Assembly: GCA_002421905.1 (NCBI GenBank)
Contig: DISK01000014.1
Span: 37,628 to 101,627 of the forward strand
From: Micavibrio sp. UBA6212
GTDB lineage: Bacteria > Pseudomonadota > Alphaproteobacteria > Micavibrionales > Micavibrionaceae
Direction: 5' to 3'
DNA: 64,000 nucleotides
Shown here: piece after piece, positions 2,006-62,576 of the stretch
Position numbering within the stretch: the first letter of the stretch is position 1
How the letters are laid out: the number at the start of each line of letters is the position of its first letter
The notes under the pieces: generated by a model
Told to the model about the DNA's origin: nothing
The model's input: the letters and a program-made list of their open reading frames with translations, nothing else
The model's database searches: none
Translations under genes and position numbers: made by a program

Positions 2006-2014
2006 TGCTATAAT
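2006..2014 (+). promoter_or_regulatory. Extended -10 promoter candidate (TGcTATAAT) for the prepilin-like operon
   Basis: tgctataat sits 24 nt upstream of the ATG at 2038. No convincing -35. Confidence 0.35.
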
Positions 2015-2037
2015 GTAGTGTGGGGAATTATGGTGCA

Positions 2038-3519
2038 ATGGGCGCAATGATAGCTAAAAACAAAAATTCACGATGTCGCAAAAACTCTTCCGGCGGTTTC
2101 TCGCTGATCGAAGTCGCAATCGCGCTAATTGTCATTGGTCTCCTAATGGCCGCAGTCCTGCAGACATACAATATGTATGCGATCGAGCAGGTGCGCCTTG
2201 AATCAAGATCGAAAGTTGAAACTGTCAAAACTGCTCTGTACAGATATATGTATCGCTACGGAAGATATCCTCTTCCTGCCCCACGAAACGCAGCAATGGG
2301 GAGTGCAGCCTTTGGCAGGGAAGTCACAGGTCCTGTAACAACATTGTGTTCTTCTGGGGCAGCAGCAGCTGGAGATGTTTGTGTAACCACAATAGGATCA
2401 GCCGATACATCAGCAGACGTGGACGCCTTACCAGACCCTGTTTTAATCGGAGATATTCCTTTTGCAACATTGGGGATACGATATGACAACACATTGGATC
2501 CTTGGGGAGGCAAGTTCACCTATGCTGTCACTGGAAATATGACATCAATGGGAAGCAGTGATAGCTGGGGAGCCATAGAAGTTCTGGATAAAGATGGAAA
2601 TAATGCGTTTTCTGTGGGGGCTCAACGCGCTCACTACTTTATAACCAGTGCTGGCCCTGACAGAAAAGGAGCCTTTGGGGTTGGGGGAACCGAAATAGCC
2701 GCCTGTACCGCTACTTCAGGAACAGATCAGGAAAACTGTGATAGAGACGGAACATTCAGATCAAATCAGGATCTCTCCTCGGTTGAAAAGCTGACACAAA
2801 TATACGATGGAGATAACGTATCACATTTTGACGACTTTGTTTATTACACAGATTCAACTGATGCGGGTATATGGACCAGATTGACGGCCACGACACCAGG
2901 CCAGATCGATATAGCGAACACCAATGCCCAGAACACAAAAATTGGAGCTTTTCCTACATCTGCTCCCGCGACATGCTCCGCTGAATGCACCCCCATCTGT
3001 ACAACAGCCAAAGCATCTTGTGATTCAGGTTGCGGTGGGGCTCCAGCATGTCTAGCGGCCTGCACCGCTGCAAAAACCAGTTGCGACAGCTCCTGTTCAA
3101 CAACGAATTGCAAATCTCTCCCACGTACAAAGGTTGATGTTGAAGGGTCGGTCAGGGCAAATCAGGTAAACACCAACAGATTATGCTATGACAACTCTAT
3201 AACGGGCTGTACTTCAAATTTGGCCGTTCCAATTCCATATGGAGTATTCACACCACGCACAGTCGGAGGAATCCCAACTACGGGAGCAGGAACAACCGTC
3301 GAAAACTCCCCAAACTATAGAAACAGGGGTGGGGGCATTCTTTGTAGGTCAAATATGGCCATGCGTGGAATGGGTACAGGTGAAGAGTTGTGCGCTTATA
3401 CGACATACTTTTCAAGTGCCGGCACTCTCGGTACTTCTTCTTGTGGGACAGGATACTATGCCAAAGGAATTAACTCGGACGGCACATTCTGTTGTTCAAA
3501 TGCCGCCTCATGCTATTAG
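2038..3519 (+). CDS. Large prepilin-type N-terminal cleavage/methylation domain protein (pseudopilin-like P1), Cys-rich C-terminus
   Basis: Basic leader, then GG|FSLIEVAIALIVIGLLMAAV (G-F-x-L-I-E plus hydrophobic helix). GspG-like DPWG..Y.V and SAGPDRKGAF motifs. 46-aa stretch with 10 Cys. ATG at 2038 chosen in frame with the track ORF 2020. Confidence 0.8.
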   Translation: MGAMIAKNKNSRCRKNSSGGFSLIEVAIALIVIGLLMAAVLQTYNMYAIEQVRLESRSKVETVKTALYRYMYRYGRYPLPAPRNAAMGSAAFGREVTGPVTTLCSSGAAAAGDVCVTTIGSADTSADVDALPDPVLIGDIPFATLGIRYDNTLDPWGGKFTYAVTGNMTSMGSSDSWGAIEVLDKDGNNAFSVGAQRAHYFITSAGPDRKGAFGVGGTEIAACTATSGTDQENCDRDGTFRSNQDLSSVEKLTQIYDGDNVSHFDDFVYYTDSTDAGIWTRLTATTPGQIDIANTNAQNTKIGAFPTSAPATCSAECTPICTTAKASCDSGCGGAPACLAACTAAKTSCDSSCSTTNCKSLPRTKVDVEGSVRANQVNTNRLCYDNSITGCTSNLAVPIPYGVFTPRTVGGIPTTGAGTTVENSPNYRNRGGGILCRSNMAMRGMGTGEELCAYTTYFSSAGTLGTSSCGTGYYAKGINSDGTFCCSNAASCY

Positions 3520-3526
3520 GGATAAC

Positions 3527-4843
3527 ATGACAAAAAACAACGATCGCAAAACACAAAAGATTACCCACGACAATAGGTCGCGCGAACAAGGGTTCACTTT
3601 GATTGAACTGTCAATTGTTATCCTGATCTTTGCAATCATGGTGACTCCATTGATCTCCCTATATGCCAGATATATCGAAGAAAAGAGAATCATAACGTCA
3701 AAAGAAATCCTATCAGACGCGAATACCAGACTCTCCACCTATTACACGAGAGGATCTTATCCTTGCCCTTCTGATCTTTCCAAGGGGTTAGGAGATCCTG
3801 ATATGGGAGTCGACTTTTGTGGGACAAGCTCTTTTGCGGCAGTCGCAGCAGCCATACCACTCAATACATGTATCAACGGGGGTGGCATTTGCCGTGTCGA
3901 GGGAACAAGAGACATGGATGGCGATGGGTTTAACGACCCTATCCTGATTGGCGGTGTCCCCTTTGCAACATTGGCAGCAAAACAGGAGGGCACAGTAGGA
4001 ATTGATGATGTTGCCAGAGATGCGTGGGGAAACATGCTTTTTTATGCAGTATCACAAAACCTAACAAACGCATCACATCCCGACTTGAACAGAATAGAAA
4101 ATGGTCTTGTGAACGACTACAGCTATGGAGTCATCGACGCAAAAGATGAATTTGGAAATGATACCAGTGGAATGAATGGTGATTCCCAATTTCTGGTTTT
4201 TTCACCAGGCCCTAACCAGATCGGCGCATTCACAATTTCTGGCGCAATATCCTTACCTTGTGACACAACAACAACGGAAGGTGAAAATTGTGATCAGGAT
4301 GGGGTTTTTGTATCAGCATTAGGAAACTATGATGCAAATACAGCAGCACGATATGATGACTTAATTCACTTCAATAAAATCCCCACTGGTGACCTATGGG
4401 GATATATCCTCAATACATCTACAGGAACAACAACAGCAAGCATCAAAAACCATAATGTGGGAAATGTGGGTATTTTAACAACGACCCCACAAGCAAAGCT
4501 TGATGTAAACGGTACGTTATCCACGCCATCCATTTTGGCCAACACATACTGTAAACCTAGTGGGGCTGGAGTCACAGGATGCCTCCCTCTGGATTTCTTC
4601 TGGTACTCCTATACATCTCCAACACTCAAATCCACCCCATCAGGCAGTATATTCATTAAAAACACCTGCTCACAAAGTTACGAAGCCATAACTTCCATCA
4701 AGAACGGACAAGTCACCTGCGCCAAAGTCTCCGCACCCCCCGCGCCAACAGGGCCAAAAGAATGTGACTCTGGATACTACATGACCGGAGTTAGAACAGA
4801 TGGATGTATATATTGTTCAGGAGGAACCAGTCCGAAATGTTAA
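3527..4843 (+). CDS. Large prepilin-type N-terminal domain protein (pseudopilin-like P2)
   Basis: MTKNNDRKTQKITHDNRSREQG|FTLIELSIVILIFAIMV. Shares its core with P1 and P3 (DPILIGGVPFATL, DAWGNMLFYAVS, SPGPNQIGAF, ENCDQDGVF). Start at the internal ATG 3527 (aggg RBS); the longer track ORF overlaps P1. Confidence 0.8.
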   Translation: MTKNNDRKTQKITHDNRSREQGFTLIELSIVILIFAIMVTPLISLYARYIEEKRIITSKEILSDANTRLSTYYTRGSYPCPSDLSKGLGDPDMGVDFCGTSSFAAVAAAIPLNTCINGGGICRVEGTRDMDGDGFNDPILIGGVPFATLAAKQEGTVGIDDVARDAWGNMLFYAVSQNLTNASHPDLNRIENGLVNDYSYGVIDAKDEFGNDTSGMNGDSQFLVFSPGPNQIGAFTISGAISLPCDTTTTEGENCDQDGVFVSALGNYDANTAARYDDLIHFNKIPTGDLWGYILNTSTGTTTASIKNHNVGNVGILTTTPQAKLDVNGTLSTPSILANTYCKPSGAGVTGCLPLDFFWYSYTSPTLKSTPSGSIFIKNTCSQSYEAITSIKNGQVTCAKVSAPPAPTGPKECDSGYYMTGVRTDGCIYCSGGTSPKC

Positions 4844-7260
4844 ATTTATTTAAGAAAAATACTTGTTTCATTTCAAGAAAACCCTGTTCCGAGAGTGGCT
4901 ATAGCCTGATCTCCGTGGCTATCAGTCTGATCATTCTAGGTTTGGTATTTGCAGCAGGTCTGACAGCCTATGGCACATATATGGAGAAACAACGTATAGA
5001 GATAACAGAGAACAATGTGAGGGAAGCCATTTCCGAGATTGAGACTTTTCGTGAAGTCAAAGGAAGATACCCATGCCCATCATCCCTCACAGCAACACGA
5101 AACCTGCCCACATATGGACAAGAAAATGAAGCTGACTGCATTAATGCCGGCCCTGCTATCCCTGCAGGGTCCTGCGTAAACGGTGTCTGTGTCGTAAGCA
5201 GCGAGGCAAGTCGAATAGGTATAGCCCCAACAGTAAGAATAGGGGCTCTTCCTTTCCGAGCACTTCAAATGGATGAGAAGAAAACTTATGATGCCTATGG
5301 ATCTCGCCTGCTTTACGCAGTCACTGAAAGACAAGCCGTTGAAAGTACCTTCTCGGAGACGTCAGGTGGTATTGATATCATTGACGAGAATGGAAATAGC
5401 GTTCTGAACCCTATCGGTAGCGGTAATTTTGTTGTATTGAGCCATGGGCCCAACAAAGTTGGAGCATTTACCAACGGAGGGGCTCAAAGTATAGCCTGCC
5501 CAACGCTTGGGACAAGCCTTGAAGCCAACAACTGTGTTGATTTAGCTTCTCCCCCACCCAATGCGATCTTTAGATCAAGTTTTGCAGCTCTTGCCGGGGG
5601 TGCAACACAATTTGATGACACTATCGACTATTTTTCCACCCTCTTTGATCCGACTTGGAAAAGAATATCATCTAGCCCCAACGATATTCAGGCACTGACA
5701 ACCAATAATCTTGGAGCAGGTGTTTCTTCACCATCAGAGACCATAGAAATTGGTCAGAATGTTAGCACTGCTGCTGGATATGGTGTCGGAAGAACCTGGG
5801 ATGGTGGATTGCGTGTTTCAAGTAGCACTGCTGGCACAAGTCTGCAAGCCAATAAATTCTGCCAACAAAATGGTGCCGATTGTTTTGACATTGAGGATTT
5901 TTCAGGACCAACGGGGATAGAGTGCACAAACCCCGGGGAATATATGGTTGGAATTGAAGGGAACGGTTCAAACGCTACCGCGAAATGTGCCCCTGTCATG
6001 GTTCAATGTCCTACCGGACAAGTTTTGACAGGTGTCAATGCAACAACTGGGGCACCTCTTTGTTCAGCGGCATACACAAACTGTAATGCCGAAAATGTTC
6101 AAATTTGTAATACATCAGGAAATTACGACCCCAAAAGCAGTAATCAGGCTCAAACAAACGCGATTCCTATTTTGAGCGGTGTCCACAACGAGTACAGAAA
6201 TTTGACTGACACAACCCCTTATACTTTTGCCGCAAATCCAAAAGTAGCGAGATTTCGCTGCGATAATGGAATATGGAAATACTATTCCAACATATCCGGA
6301 TTCTGTGGAAACAACTGTACCCCCCCACCTTGGGCTGGCCCTCCAGCTTACACCGGCACCACAAGTTCTACTTCAACAGTTGCATGTAGTGGGGCTCTGG
6401 GAGGCTACGGAGAAACAACAACAAGAACAACAACTTGCTCATTTGTTATCGCAAGCTGTTCGACAAATTGTACGAATGCAGATGGTCCTTGTAACTGCGC
6501 ATCCTACTTCCCCGTCGATGTAAATGGGGATCCCACAACAGGAATATCTGGAAACCCTCCTCCTCCTAAACCTGCGGATATATTAAGCTCGTGTCCTGCA
6601 GGATATAACAGCGGTAGCCTGACTACCTCCCATGTATGGGATAAAACTGATGCCGTTTGTAACTGGAAACTGGGGCCAACTGCAAACACATGCTCGTGTA
6701 ATGCTACCCTTGCTGGCGCGGCACCCACCACAGATCCTGGGAAAGACTGTAATGATCTGATAGTGGGAACATCAGGCCATGCCGATGCTGTTTGGGCATT
6801 TGACTCAACCGCTGGGCAATGTAAATGGAAAGTCACCGGTTACGATACAAGTAGTTGCTCGTGTGATACAACCACAGAACATATATCAACCACACCGCAT
6901 GCCCCGACATGCAATACAGCTTGCGATACAGAAACAACACCAGCCGTATGGGCCTACAAATATATCCTGAGTGGTGGTGTTTGCGTAAAAGACACCGAGT
7001 ACATTAAAACCCCTGCTGTATGTGGTGCTAAGTCCTTCTCTTGGACAGCAATCACATACGTAGACAGTAACGCATCGCTACCATCTGGTATGAAACAATG
7101 TGGAACCAGCTGTAGAACATCTCCTGTAACTCCCCCAGTAACAACACCTCCATATGCTGTTGTTGGAAGTTCTGCGTGTCCTGAGCTGGGTTCAACGGAC
7201 GCATGCTGGAAAGCAGAAGGCGTTTATAAAACATACAATGCCAAATGTCAGGTAAACTAA
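4837..7260 (+). CDS. Giant prepilin-like protein (P3, about 807 aa) with a non-canonical Y+1/S+5 N-terminus and a Cys-rich repeat tail
   Basis: MLNLFKKNTCFISRKPCSESG|YSLISVAISLIILGLVFAAG. Core motifs RIGALPFRAL, DAYGSRLLYAVT, SHGPNKVGAF. The ATG overlaps the P2 stop (ATGTTAA). AGGAGG lies 12 nt upstream. The alternative start at 4804 cannot be excluded. Confidence 0.7.
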   Translation: MLNLFKKNTCFISRKPCSESGYSLISVAISLIILGLVFAAGLTAYGTYMEKQRIEITENNVREAISEIETFREVKGRYPCPSSLTATRNLPTYGQENEADCINAGPAIPAGSCVNGVCVVSSEASRIGIAPTVRIGALPFRALQMDEKKTYDAYGSRLLYAVTERQAVESTFSETSGGIDIIDENGNSVLNPIGSGNFVVLSHGPNKVGAFTNGGAQSIACPTLGTSLEANNCVDLASPPPNAIFRSSFAALAGGATQFDDTIDYFSTLFDPTWKRISSSPNDIQALTTNNLGAGVSSPSETIEIGQNVSTAAGYGVGRTWDGGLRVSSSTAGTSLQANKFCQQNGADCFDIEDFSGPTGIECTNPGEYMVGIEGNGSNATAKCAPVMVQCPTGQVLTGVNATTGAPLCSAAYTNCNAENVQICNTSGNYDPKSSNQAQTNAIPILSGVHNEYRNLTDTTPYTFAANPKVARFRCDNGIWKYYSNISGFCGNNCTPPPWAGPPAYTGTTSSTSTVACSGALGGYGETTTRTTTCSFVIASCSTNCTNADGPCNCASYFPVDVNGDPTTGISGNPPPPKPADILSSCPAGYNSGSLTTSHVWDKTDAVCNWKLGPTANTCSCNATLAGAAPTTDPGKDCNDLIVGTSGHADAVWAFDSTAGQCKWKVTGYDTSSCSCDTTTEHISTTPHAPTCNTACDTETTPAVWAYKYILSGGVCVKDTEYIKTPAVCGAKSFSWTAITYVDSNASLPSGMKQCGTSCRTSPVTPPVTTPPYAVVGSSACPELGSTDACWKAEGVYKTYNAKCQVN

Positions 7261-7281
7261 TATTGTAGAATTAAGGCTTTT

Positions 7282-7312
7282 GAGCAGCCTCCAAAAGAGG
7301 CTGCTCTTTTTT
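7282..7312 (+). terminator. Rho-independent terminator closing the prepilin-like operon
   Basis: Perfect 10-bp stem GAGCAGCCTC/GAGGCTGCTC, loop caaaa, followed by TTTTTT. Confidence 0.85.
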
Positions 7313-14846: not shown

Positions 14847-16433
14847 ATGACAGATATCAAACTTGATAAAACGCAGAAATTTTGCGACCGCTATTCGGAA
14901 GAACTGAATCGTATTTTCCCGAATACGACGTTGCACTATATTTTGCACTACCGGGGACAAAAGCCCGAGCAAATCGCAAAACTTTTGCCGAATCTCCACA
15001 ACCACCCTGCTTATGACGAAGCCGTCTCGTTGCTCAAATTCAGATCCCCCGGGCATGATAACTCCGCGTTTCTGGGAATGGTGATCGGATTCAAGAAATC
15101 AATGCTGGGTCTGAAAAAGTCACCCGAATGTCTGGCCTTCGTTTCAATCAATCTCAACCAGCATGACAAGGAAGAAGATCTTCATTTTGCCATTCATGCG
15201 CTGACTGCCCATTTTCTTGAAACGGTGGACTTTTATACGCGCAAACATGCCGGCACTCAAAGCAATCAAATTCTGCAACCAAAAAGAAACAACATCTCGA
15301 CCTGTCGGCTAAATCTGAAATCCGACGTCTATAGCGTCTTGCAAATGACCTATGAAGGATACGACAACGCGGTTGAAAATCTGGCGCGTAAAAGAGCCCA
15401 CAATGCCGTCACACCGCAAACTGGTCATCCTGAAGAATTCCCCTACCCGATTTCTCTTGATGTAACGAAATTTGCTATTGATAAATTTATCTCGGCCCCG
15501 AAAAAATCTGCGATCAACAGCGCCTATACTCTGGCGCGTCATGTCGCGGCCAGCTTTGACCTTGAAAATATCGAAACATGGATCAACTTTGTAAACCCTG
15601 CACAAACCATGGCGTGGAGTGGCTACAAACCCAGCCAGATTTTAAGTGCGGCGCTCAATACATCGAGCAATCCATTTCTGAAATCAACGGCGCATATGAT
15701 GGGTGAAATTCTTGATATTGAACCAGCCCCACCAGAAAGCCTGCCAACGGGATATAATCCCTTCGCCTTGCCGGAGGTTAATTACATCCAGCACGAACGC
15801 TCGGTCGAAGAAACATTTGAAATGGTTTTGATCCACGCGATGGAGGCAGACAGCCACCTGCCCTTGATCCATGTGGCAAATAACCAGAATGAAGGCTTGC
15901 TCAAAGGACGTTTTTCCGGTTGGTGTGCCCACGCTTTGCAATCTGCTGCCACGGCCTACACGACAGCCTCGGTGCGTGGTATGCCAAGCGGACAGGCCGC
16001 TCGCCTTGAATTCCAAAGTGCGAAACAACAAACAGGCTGGAAAGAACTCAACCACATCGGAAGTTTTGTCACAGACTCTCATAAAAATGGTAAGGCCGTG
16101 ACCTTGTCCGGCATTTCCGAATGGTGTGAACATAATCCACAATACAAAGCCATTCTGGAATCAATCAATATGACTCTGGCTGATCCGGCCTTCGCCAGAA
16201 AGCTGGAAGCCTCGGCGGAAATGCCATCCCCTGGCCCTTTGCCGAAAGCCGCACCACAACGCGCGCGGGCTCACAATTTTGTACCACAAATGGCACCCGC
16301 AGCCGCACCGGGCCTTGCATTGGGTGGTGGCGGCATGGGGGGAGGAAACTTCATGTCCAACCCTCCATCCCGACAAAAACCAGCCCCGTCCGATCTTCTG
16401 GATTTCAACGTCGAAGACGAAACCAAAAACTAG
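14847..16433 (+). CDS. Hypothetical protein (528 aa) with Pro/Gly/Met-rich C-terminal region and acidic tail
   Basis: Long uninterrupted ORF with coding-like composition and no motif I recognise. C-terminus ...APAAAPGLALGGGGMGGGNFMSNPPSRQKPAPSDLLDFNVEDETKN. Confidence 0.6.
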   Translation: MTDIKLDKTQKFCDRYSEELNRIFPNTTLHYILHYRGQKPEQIAKLLPNLHNHPAYDEAVSLLKFRSPGHDNSAFLGMVIGFKKSMLGLKKSPECLAFVSINLNQHDKEEDLHFAIHALTAHFLETVDFYTRKHAGTQSNQILQPKRNNISTCRLNLKSDVYSVLQMTYEGYDNAVENLARKRAHNAVTPQTGHPEEFPYPISLDVTKFAIDKFISAPKKSAINSAYTLARHVAASFDLENIETWINFVNPAQTMAWSGYKPSQILSAALNTSSNPFLKSTAHMMGEILDIEPAPPESLPTGYNPFALPEVNYIQHERSVEETFEMVLIHAMEADSHLPLIHVANNQNEGLLKGRFSGWCAHALQSAATAYTTASVRGMPSGQAARLEFQSAKQQTGWKELNHIGSFVTDSHKNGKAVTLSGISEWCEHNPQYKAILESINMTLADPAFARKLEASAEMPSPGPLPKAAPQRARAHNFVPQMAPAAAPGLALGGGGMGGGNFMSNPPSRQKPAPSDLLDFNVEDETKN

Positions 16434-48783: not shown

Positions 48784-50064
48784 CTATTTTAACTTCAAGT
48801 TCCGCAGGACGGCAAAAGGATTATCATGATCCGCGGCTTCGGCAGAAAAAACTCGAGGTTCATTGCGGAACTCTTTCTTGTCTTTCTTTCGATCATCAAA
48901 TTTCTTTTTCTTGAAATTTTTATGGTCGCCCTCATCTGATTTTTTAGCACCCTTGGCAGCATAACGTTCTTTCGGGAAAGATGGCTTATCCGCGTGTTCA
49001 GGTCGCGGCGACCGTTCAAACCGTGGACGACGTTCGGCTGCCTCAGAATGGATTTTACCACGACGCAGGAAAAAGAAATCCAACTCCGGCTTTTTCTGAG
49101 GCTCTTTTTTCTCTTTTACTTCTACTTTTACGTCTTCTGGCGCGGCTGCTTCTGGAGCTTCTGGAACTTCTGCAGGTTTTTCTTCAACCACACTCTCGAC
49201 AACAGCAACAGACTCAACTGCCGAAGGAACATCATTGGCATTGGCAATCTCAGCAATTTCAGCAACAGGTTCCACAACTGGCGGCGCTTCAATCCGTTTA
49301 TGACCCATAGAATCCAGAATGGCATAAAGATCGACAATCGGACATCCCATCCATTCTGCCATAGAATGTTGGGCTTGAAACTTGCCACCCTTGGCACCGT
49401 CATAAACTGCATTAATCACACGATCCAGCATATCAATCCGGATCACGCGTGGCCCATAAAGCGGATAACCAATCGCACGGTAAAAATCAGGGTTGGCCGT
49501 TGTGACATCGACCACAACCGACATCGCACCGTCTTTTGGTACGGGCGCAGGCAATGGCTGATCGTGGTACAAGCTCCACAACAACCCACGCAAGCGAACA
49601 GCTGCTGGCTTATTGAGATCAGGTAAAAAGATCAACAAGGGCCCAAGACGAACCTTTTTATCGCGCAACATTTTGCGCATCTCAGGATCAAGCAAAGCGA
49701 TCTGGTCTTCGACATCGCCACGCGGGACAATTCCGGTACCAGAGAATAATTTCAAGGAAATGTTACGAACAGGTTCCGGAACAGACTCTGCCATGGCCTC
49801 ATCTGACACCAAAGCAAATAGAGGTTCCAGAACAGTATAGATATGGGCCTTCAACCAGGTGGCCACATGAGCCTGCACAGCATTCGGGTCTTCACTTCCC
49901 AGATCACGCCCCGCAAGAATCTCCACCTCTGGAGCCAGTAAGCTCTCTCCCTTTTTTACAAAAGCCAGAGCCGCTCCCGGCAAGGGGTTTGTGGAATCCG
50001 GCTGGAAGAAAATTTGCCCGTCATCAGCGAGGGTAAATTGTTTAGAGATAGCAGACAAAATCAT
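48784..50064 (-). CDS. Hypothetical protein (about 426 aa) with highly basic Lys-rich C-terminal tail
   Basis: Long ORF. C-terminal ...KKSDEGDHKNFKKKKFDDRKKDKKEFRNE. No motif I can name with confidence. Confidence 0.55.
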   Translation of the reverse strand: MILSAISKQFTLADDGQIFFQPDSTNPLPGAALAFVKKGESLLAPEVEILAGRDLGSEDPNAVQAHVATWLKAHIYTVLEPLFALVSDEAMAESVPEPVRNISLKLFSGTGIVPRGDVEDQIALLDPEMRKMLRDKKVRLGPLLIFLPDLNKPAAVRLRGLLWSLYHDQPLPAPVPKDGAMSVVVDVTTANPDFYRAIGYPLYGPRVIRIDMLDRVINAVYDGAKGGKFQAQHSMAEWMGCPIVDLYAILDSMGHKRIEAPPVVEPVAEIAEIANANDVPSAVESVAVVESVVEEKPAEVPEAPEAAAPEDVKVEVKEKKEPQKKPELDFFFLRRGKIHSEAAERRPRFERSPRPEHADKPSFPKERYAAKGAKKSDEGDHKNFKKKKFDDRKKDKKEFRNEPRVFSAEAADHDNPFAVLRNLKLK

Positions 50065-50254
50065 GGTTGAAATACACACCCTGAAAAATTGGAAACAAGG
50101 GAAACTTATAGCCCCAAACAGCCTTCAATCCAAGCAAAAAGGCATAAAATGGAAAATATTTTTGTATTGGGACACAGCCAGAAAAAACTGCTAAACTGCC
50201 CCACGCAATATATCAAAACTTCAGGCGAAACACCGATCAAGTACAGGAAAAACC

Positions 50255-51772
50255 ATGAAACACATCCCGCGCACACTGCTTTTAACCATGCCGACCGCCC
50301 TGCTGCTTATGTCCACCACGGCCTCTTATGCTGCTATTGACGCCCAAGGCGCTGCAGAACTTAACTCATTGATAAGCAACTATATTCAAGAACAACAAAA
50401 GATCACAGCCGCCACAGGCGCCACTCTGGTGGCTAACGGAGAAACCACCGTCACCCCCCAAGGCACTTATTATTCTGTCGTTTTACCACATCTGATAACC
50501 CGTTATCCGGGGGATGTTGCATCCTATGACATGGGAAAAATTGCGATCAACGCTATGCCGGGCAACACAGATGATGAATGGAAAGTATCTTTCTCGCTGC
50601 CCAGAACTGTTTCTGTAAACACCCCAAAAGACGGTAAAGTTGATTTCCATTTTGGCCAACAAAAAGCGTCAGGCATCTGGAACAGCAAGCTGAACTATAT
50701 GTTCCAGATCAATGCCGAATATAAAAATGTCACTATTGAAAAGACCATGCCAGACACACCTGAACCTCAGACACCTCTGGTCACAATCGGCACAATAAAT
50801 ATCAAACAAAACCTTCGGGAAGATGCACTGAACAGCCAGACATGGTCTGGCCCTGCCGACTTCTCTGCTCAGAATATTCAGACTGACAAGCTATCGATTG
50901 GCGAGGTATCCGCCAATTATATAATCAAAAACATTGATTACACAGTCATGACCAAAATGCGGAATGAATTGAAATCAATGGGAGAGAACAGTCAAAGCCT
51001 GAGTGATCTTCAGAACGACCCGACAGCCGCCCTTAATATGTTTGATGTAATGGCCAAGATGTTTGAGACCCCTATGGGAGAGTTCACATCCGAATTCACC
51101 CTGAAGGACTTGAAAGCAACTGGCTATATGAATGCTCCTCAAACATCGGGTGATGAAGTAACATTGAAATCTGCACATTTTGGTCTGGATATGAATTTAT
51201 CCAATCCCCAAAAAGCCTCAATGGTCTTTCGTCTTGGCCTCAACGGGCTGGATGCCCCCTTTGAAGATAAAAAGGATGTCACCCCGAAAAATGCTGAGCT
51301 AGAAATCAAGGTAGACTCCCTGCCTCTGACAGAACTCGTAAAAACAACCCGTCAAATTGCAGGAGTAGAGATGCAAGGGGCAACTCCGGACGCCACACCG
51401 GTTAAACCCTATCCACAAATTCTGGCCGAAGCCCAAACCAGCTTTTCAAACAAGGTCGATATCAACACCGATATCCTCAATGTTCATGGACAAGGCGCGG
51501 CTCAAGCCTCCGGACAGAGCATGATTGGCCTGACCACCGATCAGAATTGGGAGATCAAAGGACTGGATGCGTTGCTTGAAAAACTGAAAGCTGACCAGAA
51601 AAATCCGAAGATTAGTCAACAGATCGCCCAGAAACTTGCAATTTTACAACTCATGGGGCAAATGTCACCTGATAAGCCAGACACAAGAACCTATCATCTG
51701 GTTGTTGATGGCCAAGGACAGATGACCATGAACGGGGCAGACCTGATGTCCATGATGGGAAATATGAAATAA
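50255..51772 (+). CDS. Secreted hypothetical protein (505 aa; possibly DUF2125-like)
   Basis: Signal peptide MKHIPRTLLLTMPTALLLMSTTASYA|A. The family assignment is a weak recollection only. Confidence 0.55.
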   Translation: MKHIPRTLLLTMPTALLLMSTTASYAAIDAQGAAELNSLISNYIQEQQKITAATGATLVANGETTVTPQGTYYSVVLPHLITRYPGDVASYDMGKIAINAMPGNTDDEWKVSFSLPRTVSVNTPKDGKVDFHFGQQKASGIWNSKLNYMFQINAEYKNVTIEKTMPDTPEPQTPLVTIGTINIKQNLREDALNSQTWSGPADFSAQNIQTDKLSIGEVSANYIIKNIDYTVMTKMRNELKSMGENSQSLSDLQNDPTAALNMFDVMAKMFETPMGEFTSEFTLKDLKATGYMNAPQTSGDEVTLKSAHFGLDMNLSNPQKASMVFRLGLNGLDAPFEDKKDVTPKNAELEIKVDSLPLTELVKTTRQIAGVEMQGATPDATPVKPYPQILAEAQTSFSNKVDINTDILNVHGQGAAQASGQSMIGLTTDQNWEIKGLDALLEKLKADQKNPKISQQIAQKLAILQLMGQMSPDKPDTRTYHLVVDGQGQMTMNGADLMSMMGNMK

Positions 51773-56775: not shown

Positions 56776-59301
56776 ATGAAACAACCGTTCAAACTGCCTA
56801 TACTTCTTCAGGTCATAACAATATTCGCCCTTTTATTTGCCCCACTGCAAACAGTTCTGGCACAAGATAACTCATCCACGTCACTGCAATACAATGATAT
56901 GCATGAGGACGACTCGCAAAACACCCATTCTCTGAATACTCAGGACAAAATCCAGACTCTGTTCAACAACCTTGAAACGATTGGCAATAGCTATAACTCA
57001 GGAGGAAGCAAGGCCGCAGAACTGGCCCTTCTGGACAGCGGCTGCCAGACTGCCATCGACAGATTTTTGAAAACCAATCTGGTTCACGATCTCACCCCCA
57101 CTTTGAATAAAAGTAAGAGCAGCCCAAATGAAGCTATGGCATGGGTCGATGCAAAGGTCAGTGGCCTGAGCGTCAGGGCAAAAAGTGCTTTCTGTGCCAT
57201 GATGAAAGGCGAGAAGATTGAATCTCTCGATCTCAACGAAACGCTACACTCAACCGTTCGCAATGACATCTTCCCCACGCTTATGATGCAAGGGGTAGGC
57301 TGGGCAAATAACAGCCAGCTTCCCTTCCTGACCCGACTTGAAGTCGAACTCGGCTCCTCTGACGGAGATTTCATCAGCTCCATCACCTCTATACAGCCGC
57401 TCTGGCAAGATCACACCAATACACATCATGTCTTTGCCCAGCTTTCCTATTATAAAGCGCCTGATGAAACCAACGACCAAGGCTTCAAAGTCAAGCATGA
57501 CACCGTCAATGCCGGTGTCGCTTATCGCTATTTGACCCCTGATAAAAAACTCCTGTACGGGGCGAATGTGTTTTTTGACCATGCTCCAAAAAGAAATCAT
57601 AACCGCATGAGCTTTGGTGTTGATGCCCGTACCAGCCAACTGGCTGTCTCTGCAAACCGCTATATGCCTCTTTCCACATGGCGAAGCCTCGATCTTTACT
57701 ATGAAGATCGAGCTGCAGCAGGATGGGATCTCGAATTGCGCGGTCAGGTTCCCGAACTCCCAAGCTGGACAGCCTCAGTCAAAGGGTACCAGTGGGACGA
57801 TCAGGATGATGGCGCAGATTTATATGGAACCACAGCCGCTGTTGAATACTCCCCTATCCCTGCCATGGCGTTTCGTCTTGGCCTGAATAAGGACACACAA
57901 AGCGATCCTTATCTGGAAGCAGCCCTGCGCTTTAATTATCGTTTTGATGATCCGGATGGCCTGCAATGGAAACAAAGAACCGAACTCGCTCCGGTTAGCG
58001 ACTATATCTATGAGAAAGTTCAACGTGAAAATATCATCCGGACAAAAGTTCGCAGAAAACACTCTTCAAAACTGGAAGTTATAGAGACAGCCGGAGCAAA
58101 TACATCTATTGAGACAACCGGAAGCACTTCTTTGTATGTTAGCCAAACTCTCCTGATGCCAGTCACCGTTACGACGGCCAATACAGTTGGAGCTTACGCA
58201 CGACTGAGATTTGCCAAAGGAGCAATCCTGACCTTGGGACAAAATACACAGGTTCAAATTGTCCCCGATCTGATTACTCTGGTAACCGGAACCATTCAGT
58301 ATGTCTCTGATGGTGTCATCACAAACGTCGCAGTTCCAGGAGGAACCATTCAACTTCACGGAACGGATATTGACGTCGTATCAAACGGTATCGACACCAG
58401 TGTTCGTGTCCGCGACGGGTCAATCACCTTAACAGGAACCGTCTCAGGATCAGCAACGATTGGGGCAGCAGAAATGGCGCGCTCAATTGCAGGTGTGGTT
58501 GGAACTGTTGCCTCAGGGACAGCCCCCTATACAACCCATACCGATCAGGTATCAACCCAGATCGACCGTGTTGCCTCCTCTCTGAACGGTGCAAAAGTGG
58601 CTCCATACCCCTATGAATTCCCGCGCATTGTGTCTGAAAATCTAACCCCGGGACAACAGATCGTCATTGGCCTGAAATTCAATGATGCCGTGACCGTATC
58701 CGGTGGAGTGCCCTTTATGAACGTCTCCATCAATGGCAATCTGGGAACCGCGCCTCTGATTGGCGGTAGCGGAACAAATGACCTGATGTTTGGATATACC
58801 GTTCAACCGGCAGATGGTGGCGCAACATCCATTACCATCCTGAATATAGATCAAAACGGTGCCTCTATGATGGGTAATGGTAAGAATGCAATCACTACAA
58901 TTGCAGACGCAACGCTAAACCTTAGTGGTTCGGTATCTGATATAACGCCGCCAGCAGGGTATGCCGTGGCCTTTACGACAACACCAGTAAACATTGCGAA
59001 TGTCGGTGCGGCAGCATTTGAGATTACAACGGCAGAAATCGGCTCAACATACAGCTACACAATTTCCAGCTCGGGAGGTGGAACAAACGTAACTGGCACC
59101 GGTACGATTGCAGGAGCAACAGAAAGCATCACAGGTTTGAACCTTGCAGGATTGAATGATGGAACATTAACCGTCAGCGTAACTCTGACAGATCCATCTT
59201 TGAATGTTGGAACTCCCGTTACAAATACTGCAACAAAAGATGTTGTTGCCCCCTATATTGTATCGGTAACCCCACCTGCAAGCACAACCTACGCGCCGTA
59301 A
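56776..59301 (+). CDS. Inverse autotransporter (intimin/invasin-family) outer-membrane adhesin with FecR-like and Ig-like passenger domains
   Basis: Signal peptide ...LQTVLA|QD. The beta-domain aligns with Yersinia invasin from memory: GANVFFDHAPKRNHNRMSFGVDARTSQLAVSANRYMPLSTW....EDRAAAGWDLELRGQVPELPSWTASVKGYQW versus GVNTFIDHDLSRDHTRLGLGAEYWRDYLKFSANGYIRLSGW....ERPANGWDIRAEGYLPAWPQLGASLMYEQYY. Followed by ...ALRFNYRF and VQRENIIRTK. Confidence 0.85.
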   Translation: MKQPFKLPILLQVITIFALLFAPLQTVLAQDNSSTSLQYNDMHEDDSQNTHSLNTQDKIQTLFNNLETIGNSYNSGGSKAAELALLDSGCQTAIDRFLKTNLVHDLTPTLNKSKSSPNEAMAWVDAKVSGLSVRAKSAFCAMMKGEKIESLDLNETLHSTVRNDIFPTLMMQGVGWANNSQLPFLTRLEVELGSSDGDFISSITSIQPLWQDHTNTHHVFAQLSYYKAPDETNDQGFKVKHDTVNAGVAYRYLTPDKKLLYGANVFFDHAPKRNHNRMSFGVDARTSQLAVSANRYMPLSTWRSLDLYYEDRAAAGWDLELRGQVPELPSWTASVKGYQWDDQDDGADLYGTTAAVEYSPIPAMAFRLGLNKDTQSDPYLEAALRFNYRFDDPDGLQWKQRTELAPVSDYIYEKVQRENIIRTKVRRKHSSKLEVIETAGANTSIETTGSTSLYVSQTLLMPVTVTTANTVGAYARLRFAKGAILTLGQNTQVQIVPDLITLVTGTIQYVSDGVITNVAVPGGTIQLHGTDIDVVSNGIDTSVRVRDGSITLTGTVSGSATIGAAEMARSIAGVVGTVASGTAPYTTHTDQVSTQIDRVASSLNGAKVAPYPYEFPRIVSENLTPGQQIVIGLKFNDAVTVSGGVPFMNVSINGNLGTAPLIGGSGTNDLMFGYTVQPADGGATSITILNIDQNGASMMGNGKNAITTIADATLNLSGSVSDITPPAGYAVAFTTTPVNIANVGAAAFEITTAEIGSTYSYTISSSGGGTNVTGTGTIAGATESITGLNLAGLNDGTLTVSVTLTDPSLNVGTPVTNTATKDVVAPYIVSVTPPASTTYAP

Positions 59302-59304
59302 AAC

Positions 59305-60951
59305 ATGAAAATAAAAGCATCTGCCCTCCTGACTTTCCTGTTTCTGACAGCCGCGTACGAAGTCAAGGCAGCTCCCGCAAATGTTGACTTTACCGTGACC
59401 ATGAGCGAAGCCGCCAACGTCACAGGCTGCCCTGCCAACTGTCCCCGCATCGCCGTCACGGTTGACGGACAAACCCGTTACGCAGAATATAGCGCAGGAA
59501 CAGGATCATCTTCCCTTACCTTTTCCTATGCCCCGACCATTGGCGATCTTGATCTCGATGGTGTAACGCTCACTTCCCCGATTGACCTGAATGGCGGAAC
59601 CATCACCGATCTCAACGGGAACTCAATCACACCACTGACCTATACCGTTCCTGATACCTCCGGCATCAAAATCGACTACCCGTCTCTCTCGATGGATTTT
59701 ACCAACGGCACAGGCGGGCGATACACACTCAACGGCACAGCCTACAACGATCTCTCTTCTTTCCTGACTGCCACCGGTGGGACTTATACACGCGCCAGTG
59801 TAGGAACATATTTCGATTCAACAGGTACACTCCAAACCGCAGCCGCCAACCAACCTCGCTTCGACTATGATCCAGTTACCCACGCCCCAAAAGGCATCCT
59901 CATTGAGGAACAAAGGACGAATTTACTTACAAACGGACAAGGAGCCGGCGCCTCCGGAGTTACAAACCCATCCGGATGGAATATCGACCAAGCTTTCGGA
60001 GGGATTCAGCCGTCTCTAAAAAACAGTGGCATAGACTCTCAAGGCTATGGATATTTTGAGTTCACCATCAACGGAACAACAACACTACCCAATCGATTAT
60101 TGGTTAACCCCGCATCTGCGAGGATAAATATTTTAGCAAATACGCCATACACACTATCGTACAATGTTGAACTGACAAACGGAATCTACCCATACGGTAT
60201 TCAAGCAAGTATTGCATGGTATGATGCATCAAACAACGTGCTATCCAGCAACTATGGCTATGCCCGACATACAGTCGGTTCAAAGATACGTCAATCCGAC
60301 ACTGTAACGTCGCCAGCATCTGCTGCTAAAATGAGAATCTGGTTCGACTTTATTGATTATGGAGCGCCCAATATCGGAAGCAATGAAAACTTCACTATAA
60401 GACTTTCTGGCATTCAACTTGAACAGGGCAGATTTCCTACATCCTACATTCCCACAACAAGTTCTGCCGTAACGCGACAGACCGACACCCTGACCATTCC
60501 AACGAGCGGATGGACAGGCTCTTTTATCGGAACGTTAATGGCGCAATCTGTTATTCCCTATCTGGGGGCATCAACCCGATATCCCGGCATTGCGGCAATG
60601 GATGATGGCTCCATTAGTAATGCTATCCATTTTTTGATAGGTGATCCGGGTGGTGATGAAAAGGCCGCAAGTATGCATTATGGAGGAATCTCCAATTATA
60701 GCTTCTTAAGTAATGCATACATAGTTGGCAATATTTTGAAGCAATGTCTGGCTTATAGCGGAACCTCAACAAATGCGGCACAAGATGGAGTTCTAGGAAC
60801 ATCTGCGGAGGCGCTCTCAATTCCAAATTTGACTACGCTTCGCGTTGGCAATCGCCGCGGAGGAGTTGATCCTCTCAATGGTTGGGTGCAAACAACAAAA
60901 TACTATCCGTTCCGCGTATCTGATGCGCAGTTACAATTGTTAACGCAATAG
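59305..60951 (+). CDS. Secreted protein, paralogue A: conserved Ig-like N-module plus divergent ConA/LamG-like (tail-fibre-like) C-terminal domains
   Basis: Signal peptide MKIKASALLTFLFLTAAYEVKA|APA. Starts 3 nt after the IAT stop. Motifs RFDYDPVTHAPKGILIEEQRTN, IQLEQGRFPTSYIPTTSSAVTRQTD, and terminal ...YYPFRVSDAQLQLLTQ. Confidence 0.75.
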   Translation: MKIKASALLTFLFLTAAYEVKAAPANVDFTVTMSEAANVTGCPANCPRIAVTVDGQTRYAEYSAGTGSSSLTFSYAPTIGDLDLDGVTLTSPIDLNGGTITDLNGNSITPLTYTVPDTSGIKIDYPSLSMDFTNGTGGRYTLNGTAYNDLSSFLTATGGTYTRASVGTYFDSTGTLQTAAANQPRFDYDPVTHAPKGILIEEQRTNLLTNGQGAGASGVTNPSGWNIDQAFGGIQPSLKNSGIDSQGYGYFEFTINGTTTLPNRLLVNPASARINILANTPYTLSYNVELTNGIYPYGIQASIAWYDASNNVLSSNYGYARHTVGSKIRQSDTVTSPASAAKMRIWFDFIDYGAPNIGSNENFTIRLSGIQLEQGRFPTSYIPTTSSAVTRQTDTLTIPTSGWTGSFIGTLMAQSVIPYLGASTRYPGIAAMDDGSISNAIHFLIGDPGGDEKAASMHYGGISNYSFLSNAYIVGNILKQCLAYSGTSTNAAQDGVLGTSAEALSIPNLTTLRVGNRRGGVDPLNGWVQTTKYYPFRVSDAQLQLLTQ

Positions 60952-60953
60952 AG

Positions 60954-60976
60954 GAAAAGAAAAGAAAAGAAAAGAA
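60954..60976 (+). repeat. Pentanucleotide microsatellite (GAAAA)4 between GAGGA and the start codon of paralogue B
   Basis: gagGAAAAGAAAAGAAAAGAAAAgaaATG, followed by an A7 run in codons 2 to 4 (60980-60986). Confidence 0.9.
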
Positions 60977-62566
60977 ATGAAAAAAATAGTTTCATTTTTG
61001 GGGTTCTCGTTTTTCCTTATCCCATCCACTTGGGCTGCACCAGCCAATGTGGATTTTATCGTTACGATGAGTGAGGCGGTGAATGTGACGGGGTGCCCGA
61101 CTAACTGCCCGCGCATTGCGGTCACTGTTGACGGGCAAACCAGATACGCAACCTACTCCGCAGGGACAGGCACATCGTCTCTCACCTTTTCTTATGCCCC
61201 GACCATTGGCGATCTTGATCTCGATGGGGTCGCGTTAACATCACCAATTGATTTGAATGGCGGAACTATCACCGACCTCAACGGCAATCCTGAAACAGAC
61301 CTAACCTTTACAGTCCCCAATACATCAGGCATAAAAATTGATTACCCGTCTCTCTCGATGGATTTTGTGGCAGACGCAGATGGGCGTTATACAGTCAATG
61401 GGACAGCCTATAATGATCTCTCCTCTTTCCTTGGTGCCACAGGTGGCACATTCACCCGTTCCAGTGTGGGAACATATTTTGATTCAACAGGAACACTTCA
61501 AACTGCGGCCTCAGGCCAACCCCGCTTCGACCATGACCCGGTTACCCACACCCCAAAAGGAATCCTCATCGAGGAAAGCCGTTCAAATAAATTGCTAAAC
61601 AGTTCTGATTTCAACGCCTCTGGCTGGAGTAGAACAGATATTACAGTTAATAGCAGCACAGGGCATATATATAACCTACAAAAGATCACGGAGGGGTCAG
61701 CAGGAACCGCGCTCCTAAGACAAAATGTATTTGGGGCATTTACAGCCGGATCAACAACATACGGTTCATTTTTTGTTTCAAGGGGGAATACAGACTGGAT
61801 TGTTGTAAAAATCAATGAAACAGGGGCTGGAGAAATCGCAAATTTTTGGTTTAATATTGCAACAGGAATCGCAGGATCCATTACAAAAACAGGGGGGAGC
61901 AACGAAACAGCAAAAATTATTCCTATTTCAAGTGGCGTATATAGAATAATTGTAAGCTTTCTCCCAAATCCAACATCAACAAATCGAGGAATTTTGATAA
62001 GTTCTGCAACATCAAACGGCTCTTTATCACGAGTGCCTGGGGCAGAATACTATGTATCATACGCTCAACTTGAACAAGGCTCTTTCCCCACTTCCTATAT
62101 CCCTACCACAAGCGCAGCGGTAACGCGTGCGGCAGAAACGATGACCGTACCAATAAGTTCTTGGTTCAATAATACAAACGGTTCAATTTCTTTTACCGGA
62201 GACGTTATTTCATCTGGAACAGAAGCCACTCCAGGAGGAATTGCTATACATTCAATCGGGAATAATGGTTATTTGTTTTATAAACAAGCGGGCACATTGA
62301 ACCTCTATTCTTTTGTTGGAACGGGGCAAGTTAATATTGGTGCAGTATCAAGTAACACTCTATTTATTGCAGGAATGGCCTATAACACAACGACAGCAAA
62401 AGGGGCATTGAACGGAGTCCTATCTGCTGGTTTTACACCTTCATCTGTCTGGCTGCCGACATATTTGAAAACAAATCAAGCTGGCTCATGGAATGGGCAC
62501 ATCATGAAATATAAATTTTATCCAACTCAATCCTCTGACACCCAACTCCAACTTTTAACACAGTGA
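60977..62566 (+). CDS. Secreted protein, paralogue B (same architecture, different C-terminal domains)
   Basis: MKKIVSFLGFSFFLIPSTWA|APANVDF. RFDHDPVTHTPKGILIEESRSN, AQLEQGSFPTSYIPTTSAAVTRAAE, WNGHIMKYKFYPTQSSDTQLQLLTQ. Confidence 0.75.
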   Translation: MKKIVSFLGFSFFLIPSTWAAPANVDFIVTMSEAVNVTGCPTNCPRIAVTVDGQTRYATYSAGTGTSSLTFSYAPTIGDLDLDGVALTSPIDLNGGTITDLNGNPETDLTFTVPNTSGIKIDYPSLSMDFVADADGRYTVNGTAYNDLSSFLGATGGTFTRSSVGTYFDSTGTLQTAASGQPRFDHDPVTHTPKGILIEESRSNKLLNSSDFNASGWSRTDITVNSSTGHIYNLQKITEGSAGTALLRQNVFGAFTAGSTTYGSFFVSRGNTDWIVVKINETGAGEIANFWFNIATGIAGSITKTGGSNETAKIIPISSGVYRIIVSFLPNPTSTNRGILISSATSNGSLSRVPGAEYYVSYAQLEQGSFPTSYIPTTSAAVTRAAETMTVPISSWFNNTNGSISFTGDVISSGTEATPGGIAIHSIGNNGYLFYKQAGTLNLYSFVGTGQVNIGAVSSNTLFIAGMAYNTTTAKGALNGVLSAGFTPSSVWLPTYLKTNQAGSWNGHIMKYKFYPTQSSDTQLQLLTQ

Positions 62567-62576
62567 GAAATGGATT

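Follow-up and report, generated by a model that had tools for sequence, protein, structure and literature searches.

The stretch of DNA analysed here (hereafter, the window) comprises 64,000 nucleotides (nt) of contig DISK01000014.1 from Micavibrio sp. UBA6212, and near its left end it carries an operon of three genes, which we call P1, P2 and P3. As originally predicted, the genes are consecutive open reading frames (ORFs) on the forward strand (Table 1). The three are genuine paralogues, coupled in their translation and kept by purifying selection. The gap between P1 and P2 measured 7 nt, rather than the 8 nt first reported, and a Shine-Dalgarno-like AGGGA overlies the P1 stop codon ahead of the P2 ATG. 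The P3 start lies over the P2 stop in the ATGTTAA overlap that had been described, and an AGGAGG is found 12 nt upstream of it. The perfect 10-bp-stem terminator was also found behind P3, with 7 of its 10 pairs being GC and a run of six T residues following the hairpin. On the upstream side, the proposed extended -10 box is present and, since a promoter scan revealed no -35 partner for it, the promoter has to be read as a consensus match only. No Rfam families or tRNAs were detected in the window. An identical metagenome contig of 262,931 bp (ENA ERZ27315056, k141_874343) contains the window at approximately positions 170,939-234,938; there, an independent gene caller agreed on P1 and P3 and gave P2 a longer start.

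Apparent frameshifts in P1 and P3 were noted in a JGI assembly (3300001592, locus L008, corresponding to window positions 2038-7260). These were treated as artefacts because within 9.8 kb that sequence differed from the window by 15 indels, whereas no difference from the window was seen in two other assemblies. Phase variation by such frameshifts was consequently dropped as a candidate, the differences probably being sequencing errors.

Prepilin signals, shared core and cysteine-rich tails

The products of the three genes had been predicted to start with a prepilin (class III) signal. All of them show the class III pattern of a short basic leader closed by Gly, then F/Y/M and ~20 hydrophobic residues, with the contexts GG↓FSLIE in P1, QG↓FTLIE in P2 and SG↓YSLIS in P3 (arrows mark the expected cleavage site). 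P1 and P2 scored above the curated thresholds of both PF07963 N_methyl (24.6 and 29.3 bits, respectively; cut-off 21.2) and TIGR02532 (18.5 and 24.7 bits; cut-off 16.3). P3 carries the motif but remained below the N_methyl threshold (12.2 bits), because in its GYSLIS sequence a Ser replaces the Glu5 that is present in P1 and P2. Matches to NCBIfam models (GspG, GspH, PilV, ComG and others) covered the first 20-60 residues only. The number of Cys residues after the leader was even in the three proteins (22 in P1, 14 in P2 and 40 in P3). Judging from these motifs, cleavage after the conserved Gly by a prepilin peptidase would be expected, and P1-P3 are, with high confidence, of pilin nature.

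The claim that the three products share a conserved core was fully borne out. Pairwise BLASTP comparisons aligned P1, P2 and P3 over approximately 290 amino acids (aa) with E = 2e-33, 3e-29 and 8e-27, a paralogy far above chance. A hidden Markov model (HMM) of the core matched P1 at E = 1.2e-66 and P3 at E = 4.9e-65. A core profile built without the N-terminal helix recovered proteins nearly all of which have G↓F(T/S)L(I/V)E at the N-terminus, indicating that the core is obligatorily attached to a class III signal. A word-index search returned 67 proteins, as if the family were rare; this idea was overturned by an exhaustive HMMER search of 1.84 billion representatives, which yielded 8,323 clusters at E<=1e-3, 6,401 at E<=1e-10 and 2,427 at E<=1e-30. 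Family statistics were obtained from 207 retrieved members, 184 of which had a recognisable signal. Glu5 was present in 170 of these 184 proteins (92%) and an even Cys count in 167. The analysis thus exposed a large protein family of thousands of clusters lacking a domain model, and it supports the prediction that counts of modular pilins are too low for want of definitions of their modules (PMC8179133).

No Pfam or NCBIfam model covered the core. When the family profile was compared with the PDB, the only region that aligned was the alpha1 helix of type IV pilins and GspG (E = 2e-11 to 1e-6). AlphaFold2 (AF2) modelled P2, from an alignment of 59 sequences, as a 49-residue N-terminal helix (residues 25-73) and a beta-rich head, with a predicted local distance difference test (pLDDT) score close to 90 as far as residue ~290. 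The P3 model showed a helix at residues 24-75 and a core with a similar pLDDT (~90). In both, the predicted alpha1, 49-52 residues long, packs on the beta-rich head. According to these models, the head would be pilin-like in topology and not close to any solved pilin.

Each core is followed by a tail of 140-520 aa without a defined domain. The original prediction noted a GILTTTPQAKLDVNG-type motif in P2 and P3. In P2 it occupies aa 315-329, the copy in P3 (aa 293-307) is weaker, and P1 turned out to carry the motif as well, split by a 46-aa insertion that sits exactly inside the loop and has no equivalent in P2. Across the family, the loop motif was found 13-33 residues past the core in 36 of the 207 members, and it was present in most paralogues of cassettes of the window type. 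A V-G-(G/N)-x-x-x-P-x-x-x-L 'capping loop' has been described as a trimeric beta-helix feature of the Bdellovibrio MAT fibres, common to S74 phage fibres (PMC10769870), fibres that serve to recognise prey or host, and the start of the tails in the P1-P3 cassette (GNVGIGT..P..KLxVxG type) weakly resembles this capping-loop region. Three signals from P2 bear on the proposed likeness to tail fibres: the tail start matched a PHROG tail-fibre family (E = 0.0034); residues 297-355, which contain GNVGILTTTPQAKLDVNG, matched the Bdellovibrio Bd1334 fibre in phmmer searches (8on4, E = 0.008; 8oml, E = 0.015); and the best Foldseek matches of the P2 model were C-terminal domains of Bdellovibrio fibre proteins, at a non-significant E >= 1.2. 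These signals are individually weak and mutually consistent, so that the likeness received weak but convergent support. The C-terminal tips are variable both in the MAT and S74 fibres and in P1-P3. The similarity extends over about 60 residues and, unlike those fibres, P1-P3 have no Sec signal and no long beta-helix and are anchored by a pilin module. The S74 chaperone-protease domain gave no Pfam match in P1-P3 at E<=1; the MAT N-terminal domain was not searched for, the N-terminus of P1-P3 being a pilin signal and not a Sec signal.

Searches of the PDB with the tail sequences produced borderline matches or noise only, and the P1 tail had no relative in either the PDB or PHROG. For the P3 tail, the word-index search found two relatives (88% and 42% identity), to which loci L001 and L018 added two further orthologues (35-40% identity). 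In an alignment of P3 orthologues with 35-91% identity, more than 30 of the tail Cys residues were invariant. We then calculated the ratio of nonsynonymous to synonymous substitution rates (dN/dS) against locus L012, from the metagenome-assembled genome (MAG) 'Alphaproteobacteria bacterium CG1_02_46_17', the closest among the GTDB matches listed. Whole-gene values were 0.096 for P1, 0.130 for P2 and 0.111 for P3 (dS ~0.4-0.46), similar to that of the neighbouring ispB. The P1 core, with 95.9% aa identity to L012, showed a dN/dS of 0.054 and the P3 core one of 0.043, while the respective tails reached 0.135 and 0.146, evolving approximately three times faster than their cores. The combination of invariant Cys and fast divergence indicates tails that evolve fast and yet are structurally fixed by disulfides, a pattern that would be expected for exposed binding modules.

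Table 1. Coordinates of the P1-P3 operon and of its features within the window.
Feature	Coordinates	Strand	Description
Possible extended -10 element	2006..2014	+	TGcTATAAT, consensus match in the sequence
P1, prepilin-like modular pilin with Glu5	2038..3519	+	ORF, 493 aa
P1 class III leader	2038..2097	+	20 aa, Gly then FSLIE; MGAMIAKNKNSRCRKNSSGG before and FSLIEVAIALIVIGLL after the expected cleavage site
P1 shared globular core	2170..2892	+	alpha1C and beta-rich head, ~220-aa domain; from family alignments
P1 Cys-rich tail	2893..3516	+	18 Cys; includes the 46-aa, 10-Cys insertion in the fibre-type loop motif
P1 insertion, aa 313-358	2974-3111	+	CSAECTPICTTAKASCDSGCGGAPACLAACTAAKTSCDSSCSTTNC; 46 residues, 10 Cys, C-x3-C-x3-C-x6-C-like rhythm
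P2, prepilin-like modular pilin with Glu5	3527..4843	+	ORF, 438 aa
P2 class III leader	3527..3592	+	22 aa, Gly then FTLIE; MTKNNDRKTQKITHDNRSREQG before and FTLIELSIVILIFAIM after the expected cleavage site
P2 loop motif of trimeric-fibre type, aa 315-329	4469..4513	+	GILTTTPQAKLDVNG; from motif scan
P3, largest paralogue, without Glu5 (GYSLIS), candidate cap subunit	4837..7260	+	ORF, 807 aa
P3 leader	4837..4899	+	21 aa, Gly then YSLIS; MLNLFKKNTCFISRKPCSESG before and YSLISVAISLIILGL after the expected cleavage site
P3 tail	5692..7257	+	~520 aa, 34 Cys, lineage-restricted; from homologue searches
Intrinsic terminator	7282..7312	+	perfect 10-bp stem, 5-nt loop (7282-7306), then T6

Related cassettes and assembly machinery

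To place the operon in context, at least 14 loci from a scan of GTDB genomes and one locus from a metagenome scan were searched locally with the core HMM. Almost every locus contained a tandem set of 2-4 paralogues. A trio of the window type (~430-490, ~415-440 and ~720-810 aa) recurred in three other genomes (L012, L001 and L026), and a short contig (L018) held its last two genes only. The housekeeping surroundings of the trio differed between loci, apart from the window and L012, which share ispB upstream and dedA downstream: L001 has sucAB upstream and two unannotated genes followed by sucD downstream, and L026 has prfA upstream and a phosphoglycerate mutase-like gene downstream. Four-gene sets were found in genomes labelled Micavibrio (L015 and L017). 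Some of the MAGs are labelled Pseudobdellovibrionaceae because the NCBI taxonomy places Micavibrio under that family. In most multi-gene loci, one or more members lacked Glu5 and read GYSLIS/Q, GMSLVA, GVSLIA or GFTIVV at this position. The order within the trio was constant, with two Glu5 members followed by the Glu5-less one, which was always the last and the largest; the P3 orthologues of L001, L018 and L026 read GYSLIQ or GYSLLS.

Some of the related loci presented unusual members. A four-gene cassette in an alphaproteobacterial MAG is closed by a protein of ~2,581 aa with 85 Cys (L020, 8997-16739); we know of no pilin-like protein near this size. At two other loci (L003, 12000-13037; L031, 7745-8779, - strand), a Glu5-less member bears a precomputed Pfam match to TSP1_ADAMTS (thrombospondin-like) and adjoins two SPM-domain proteins, with a 973-aa RTX/C-type-lectin protein also adjoining it in L031. 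In MAG GCA_003241645.1 (L030, 1658-10978), six ORFs matching the core HMM lie upstream of dnaK-dnaJ-dapB; three of them have no recognisable prepilin signal and two are RCC1-repeat proteins.

The operon had been described as lacking any pilus or type II secretion system (T2SS) machinery nearby, which proved correct. We extended the analysis by 9-10 kb on either side of the window, 82 kb of the parent contig in all, and found no type IV pilus, T2SS or Tad genes in this region; the genes there are housekeeping genes, a flagellar FliI-type ATPase gene, autotransporters and unknowns. Likewise, neither a T2SE-type ATPase nor an A24 peptidase motif turned up within 10 kb in any of the Micavibrio-like loci. 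The only member seen inside a machinery cluster was a distant relative of the core (HMM E = 1.4e-19) in a Thiobacillus sp. MAG (L025, 743-13061), where it accompanies a secretin, a TPR protein, an MshE-like ATPase with a cyclic di-GMP-binding N-terminus, a T2SSF platform protein and several pilin-like genes. This cluster could reveal the type of machine that is ancestral to the core family.

In Micavibrio aeruginosavorus ARL-13, large prepilin-type proteins are encoded by operons dispersed in the genome (PMC3189940). They include GMV_742-744 (391, 692 and 377 aa) and GMV_902-903, the latter followed by two unannotated genes, GMV_904-905, and all four of these are expressed in attack phase; GMV_212 is also listed in the expression table (PMC3189940). 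Encoded separately, at GMV_1534-1537, are a secretin, two ATPases of the PilT family and a leader peptidase of 274 aa, and the same genome also has a pilin of 247 aa (GMV_1530) and a Tad locus (PMC3189940). By analogy with M. aeruginosavorus, the window organism would also possess a prepilin peptidase. Its EF-Ts showed 73-92% identity to proteins of alphaproteobacterial MAGs and, among the best 120 matches, the nearest named genus was Micavibrio (70%).

A candidate pilus tip and the alternatives

Beyond the pilin superfamily, P1-P3 belong to no characterised family, as had been supposed: Pfam, NCBIfam, PDB profile and Foldseek searches found no significant match to the globular core. What they conform to is the known pattern of modular minor pilins and tip complexes. 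Among the possibilities first raised, disulfide-rich adhesins displayed on a pilus fit best, given the prepilin-type N-termini, the common core with variable Cys-rich extensions, the cassettes of Glu5-plus and Glu5-less members and the concept of modular pilins. We therefore lean, with some reserve, towards the view that P1-P3 are minor pilins of the modular kind and make up an adhesive tip, capped by P3, on a type IV pilus. As for an adhesive or prey-binding role in itself, we propose it tentatively, at rather less than even chances.

It is known that type IV filaments assemble tip-first from a minor-pilin complex whose cap subunit is devoid of Glu5 (PMC10191384), that modular pilins carry effector modules expected at the tip, and that CofB and TcpB form trimeric tips (PMC8179133). 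Following this model, P1-P3 would be made as prepilins, held in the inner membrane via the N-terminal hydrophobic helix and cut after the conserved Gly by a PilD-type prepilin peptidase encoded elsewhere. Their alpha1 helices would then bring them together, as minor subunits of low abundance, at the place where a filament begins and which becomes its tip, the filament itself being built by a separately encoded, shared machine of the PilB/PilC/PilQ/PilT type. P3 may cap the complex, because it lacks Glu5, is the largest and is encoded last, with the Glu5-bearing P1 and P2 placed beneath it. The three Cys-rich tails, each opening with the fibre-type loop motif, would point outward as the ligand-binding end and, in a lineage related to Micavibrio, the likely ligand would be the surface of another bacterium. 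Tip location, stoichiometry, processing and adhesive role are what we infer for P1-P3 on this basis. On the subject of prey recognition, the ARL-13 genome paper pointed only to 'pilins and many hypothetical genes' (PMC3189940). The cassette provides concrete candidates for recognising or holding prey, namely predicted surface-exposed, fast-evolving and disulfide-rich modules fused to pilins, within a conserved operon that includes a candidate cap.

The known modular pilins, such as PilB and PilC of Streptococcus sanguinis, CofB of enterotoxigenic Escherichia coli, TcpB of Vibrio cholerae and ComZ of Thermus, combine a class III signal, a pilin module and bulky extra modules, as P1-P3 do; a tip position and ligand binding have been predicted or shown for them, and they are far larger than classical pilins (PMC8179133). 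Beside the large CofB, TcpB, ComZ and PilB, P1-P3 are less exceptional than the epithet 'giant' in the original prediction implied, although the sizes on which it was based (493, 438 and 807 aa) are correct. Three differences set P1-P3 apart. Their extra modules are not von Willebrand factor A, lectin, beta-repeat or beta-solenoid domains and had no counterpart in Pfam or the PDB; the core on the pilin side is a conserved domain of ~220 aa in its own right, from a large family not described before; and the operon contains three paralogous modular pilins, while known systems have one among small pilins. With regard to operon organisation, the PilHIJK/FimU-PilVWX sets of type IVa pili and GspHIJK of the T2SS likewise combine several pilin-like proteins in one operon, a Glu5-less one capping the complex from which assembly starts (PMC10191384), and, like GspK in the T2SS, the Glu5-less member of the P1-P3 cassette exceeds the others in size. 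Unlike P1-P3, the H, I, J and K subunits are small and are not sequence paralogues of one another, and the P1-P3 operon has three subunits instead of four and no PilY1 gene after them.

Myxococcus xanthus has multiple minor-pilin/PilY1 clusters dispersed away from the main pil locus, which supply alternative sets of tip complexes. Alternative tip sets of this kind would explain why several cassettes occur per genome in M. aeruginosavorus. The M. xanthus clusters consist of canonical minor pilins and a separate PilY1 adhesin, whereas in P1-P3 the adhesin-like modules would be fused to the pilins.

Several observations weigh against a P3-capped tip. No prepilin peptidase, ATPase, platform or secretin gene was seen within the 82 kb. 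Foldseek searches of the models against the PDB and BFVD returned nothing at E<=0.001, the best match of P3 being the gonococcal pilin 1ay2 at a non-significant E = 0.42; since the core has no significant structural match, it is the helix, together with the topology of the models, that speaks for a 'pilin fold'. Modelling of the P2 and P3 tails was poor (pLDDT <50; the P3 alignment included only two tail homologues), and all of the fibre similarities are borderline (E = 0.003-0.015). Regarding M. aeruginosavorus, GMV_742-744 are weakly expressed (PMC3189940), and the ARL-13 operons are only putative members of the core family, on the strength of sizes, annotation and partly shared neighbourhoods (a dihydroorotate dehydrogenase and a CDP-alcohol transferase near L005). 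The predatory lifestyle of the window organism is itself a suggestion.

The tip could also take a more specific form, in which P1-P3 constitute a pilin-anchored heterotrimeric fibre, with the alpha1 helices in the top three positions of the pilus and the tails intertwined as a neck resembling that of a tail fibre. Such a neck would carry three different disulfide-rich receptor-binding domains and might serve prey recognition by Micavibrio-like epibiotic predators, alternative cassettes giving alternative specificities. We consider this arrangement speculative and on the improbable side. If true, it would be a hybrid of a pilus tip complex with a phage or MAT-type fibre, and it would represent a new way to build a pilus tip and a structural bridge from type IV filaments to tail-fibre-like adhesins.

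Among the alternatives, the one that survives best, while still unlikely, is that P1-P3 are pseudopilins of a T2SS-like machine, forming a short periplasmic pseudopilus that pushes out hydrolases and has no exposed adhesive tip. In ARL-13, the annotated T2SS lacks GspC, G, H and K, and its genome paper suggested pilin-like proteins as substitutes. Some homologues of P1-P3 are labelled 'PulG' or 'type II secretion system protein', and a largest member without Glu5 parallels GspK (PMC8179133). When 23 family cores were scanned against Pfam at E<=10, weak T2SSG matches appeared in five (best E = 0.0059), with no PF08334 match in the cores of P1-P3. The resemblance of the DPWG and GPD..G elements to GspG, on which the original prediction had relied, was not supported: hhalign of the core against a GspG profile gave 5% probability over 23 columns of alpha1C. 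The GspG reference sequences for this comparison had been validated by a PDB search (E = 1e-62), and on the profile-profile result GspG homology of the core was rejected. TIGR01710 scored 27.2 bits on P1 against a cut-off of 88.85 and covered residues 20-78 only, that is, the N-terminal helix. What P1-P3 have in common with GspG (PF08334, TIGR01710) is this helix and the I..AL..Y...G.YP stretch of alpha1C; the D.WG...Y and ..G.DG.G elements resemble each other superficially, and the P1-P3 core is twice as large and has conserved disulfides. Searches of Pfam and NCBIfam revealed no T2SSH, T2SSI, T2SSJ or T2SSK family in P1-P3, and for P3, in the position of GspK, they gave just a weak N-terminal match. 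Finally, Cys-rich tails that evolve fast, measure 140-520 aa and carry a fibre-type motif are better suited to binding a ligand than to acting as a piston, and several alternative cassettes in the ARL-13 genome fit interchangeable tips.

Less likely again is that P1-P3 are processed by a prepilin peptidase and never polymerise, the class III signal serving export or anchoring only, so that they end as membrane-anchored or released surface proteins. The lack of machinery near any Micavibrio-like locus, the very large size of the proteins, with one member of 2,581 aa, and the adhesin-like genes (RTX/lectin, TSP1-like) that often adjoin the cassettes are all in line with this possibility. Glu5 in 92% of the family and a full-length alpha1 tell against it, since both serve docking into a filament and not export (PMC10191384), and the regular pairing of Glu5-plus and Glu5-less members is hard to account for without co-assembly. 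Pairing of this kind in a self-contained operon could also be taken to mean that these paralogues alone make a separate thick filament, with P1 and/or P2 as its major subunits and P3 as the initiator, and the tight translational coupling suggests a fixed stoichiometry. Equimolar coupling, however, speaks against a major/minor relation inside the operon. In addition, the putative ARL-13 counterparts were expressed at 0.2-3 units, compared with 34-196 for GMV_1530, and heads of 45-85 kDa occur in no known filament, which leaves a thick filament very unlikely. That the proteins are ordinary Sec signal-anchor proteins resembling prepilins by chance is hardly credible: the sub-threshold N_methyl score of P3 would allow it, but P1 and P2 exceed the curated threshold, the motif is family-wide although the search query lacked the N-terminal helix, and the profile aligns to alpha1 of solved pilins (E = 2e-11).

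Other surface-protein genes in the window and its flanks

At the opposite end of the window (56776-64000, continuing to position 15015 of L028), the gene of an 841-aa inverse autotransporter (IAT_beta) precedes a tandem array of four genes (548, 529, 571 and 562 aa) that had no Pfam match (the last two according to the precomputed table only). The products of the 548- and 529-aa genes are 77% identical over their N-terminal 218 aa and 35% identical over the C-terminal ~180 aa, with a divergent middle. This set, located just upstream of dnaK-dnaJ-dapB, has the look of a cassette for variable proteins that are secreted or displayed on the surface. Together with the cluster of core-HMM ORFs that precedes dnaK-dnaJ-dapB in L030, it raises the possibility that this site may be a hot spot for surface proteins.

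Three further genes of the window, at 14847-16433, 48784-50079 and 50255-51772 (528, 431 and 505 aa, respectively), had no Pfam match apart from a sub-threshold sCache_2 in the 505-aa product. Between 5 and 10 kb upstream of the operon (L027, 1-5617), we found a flagellar/type III secretion-type ATPase gene (ATP-synt_ab and T3SS_ATPase_C domains) and a classical autotransporter of 623 aa. The window organism probably has flagella and a wealth of surface proteins.

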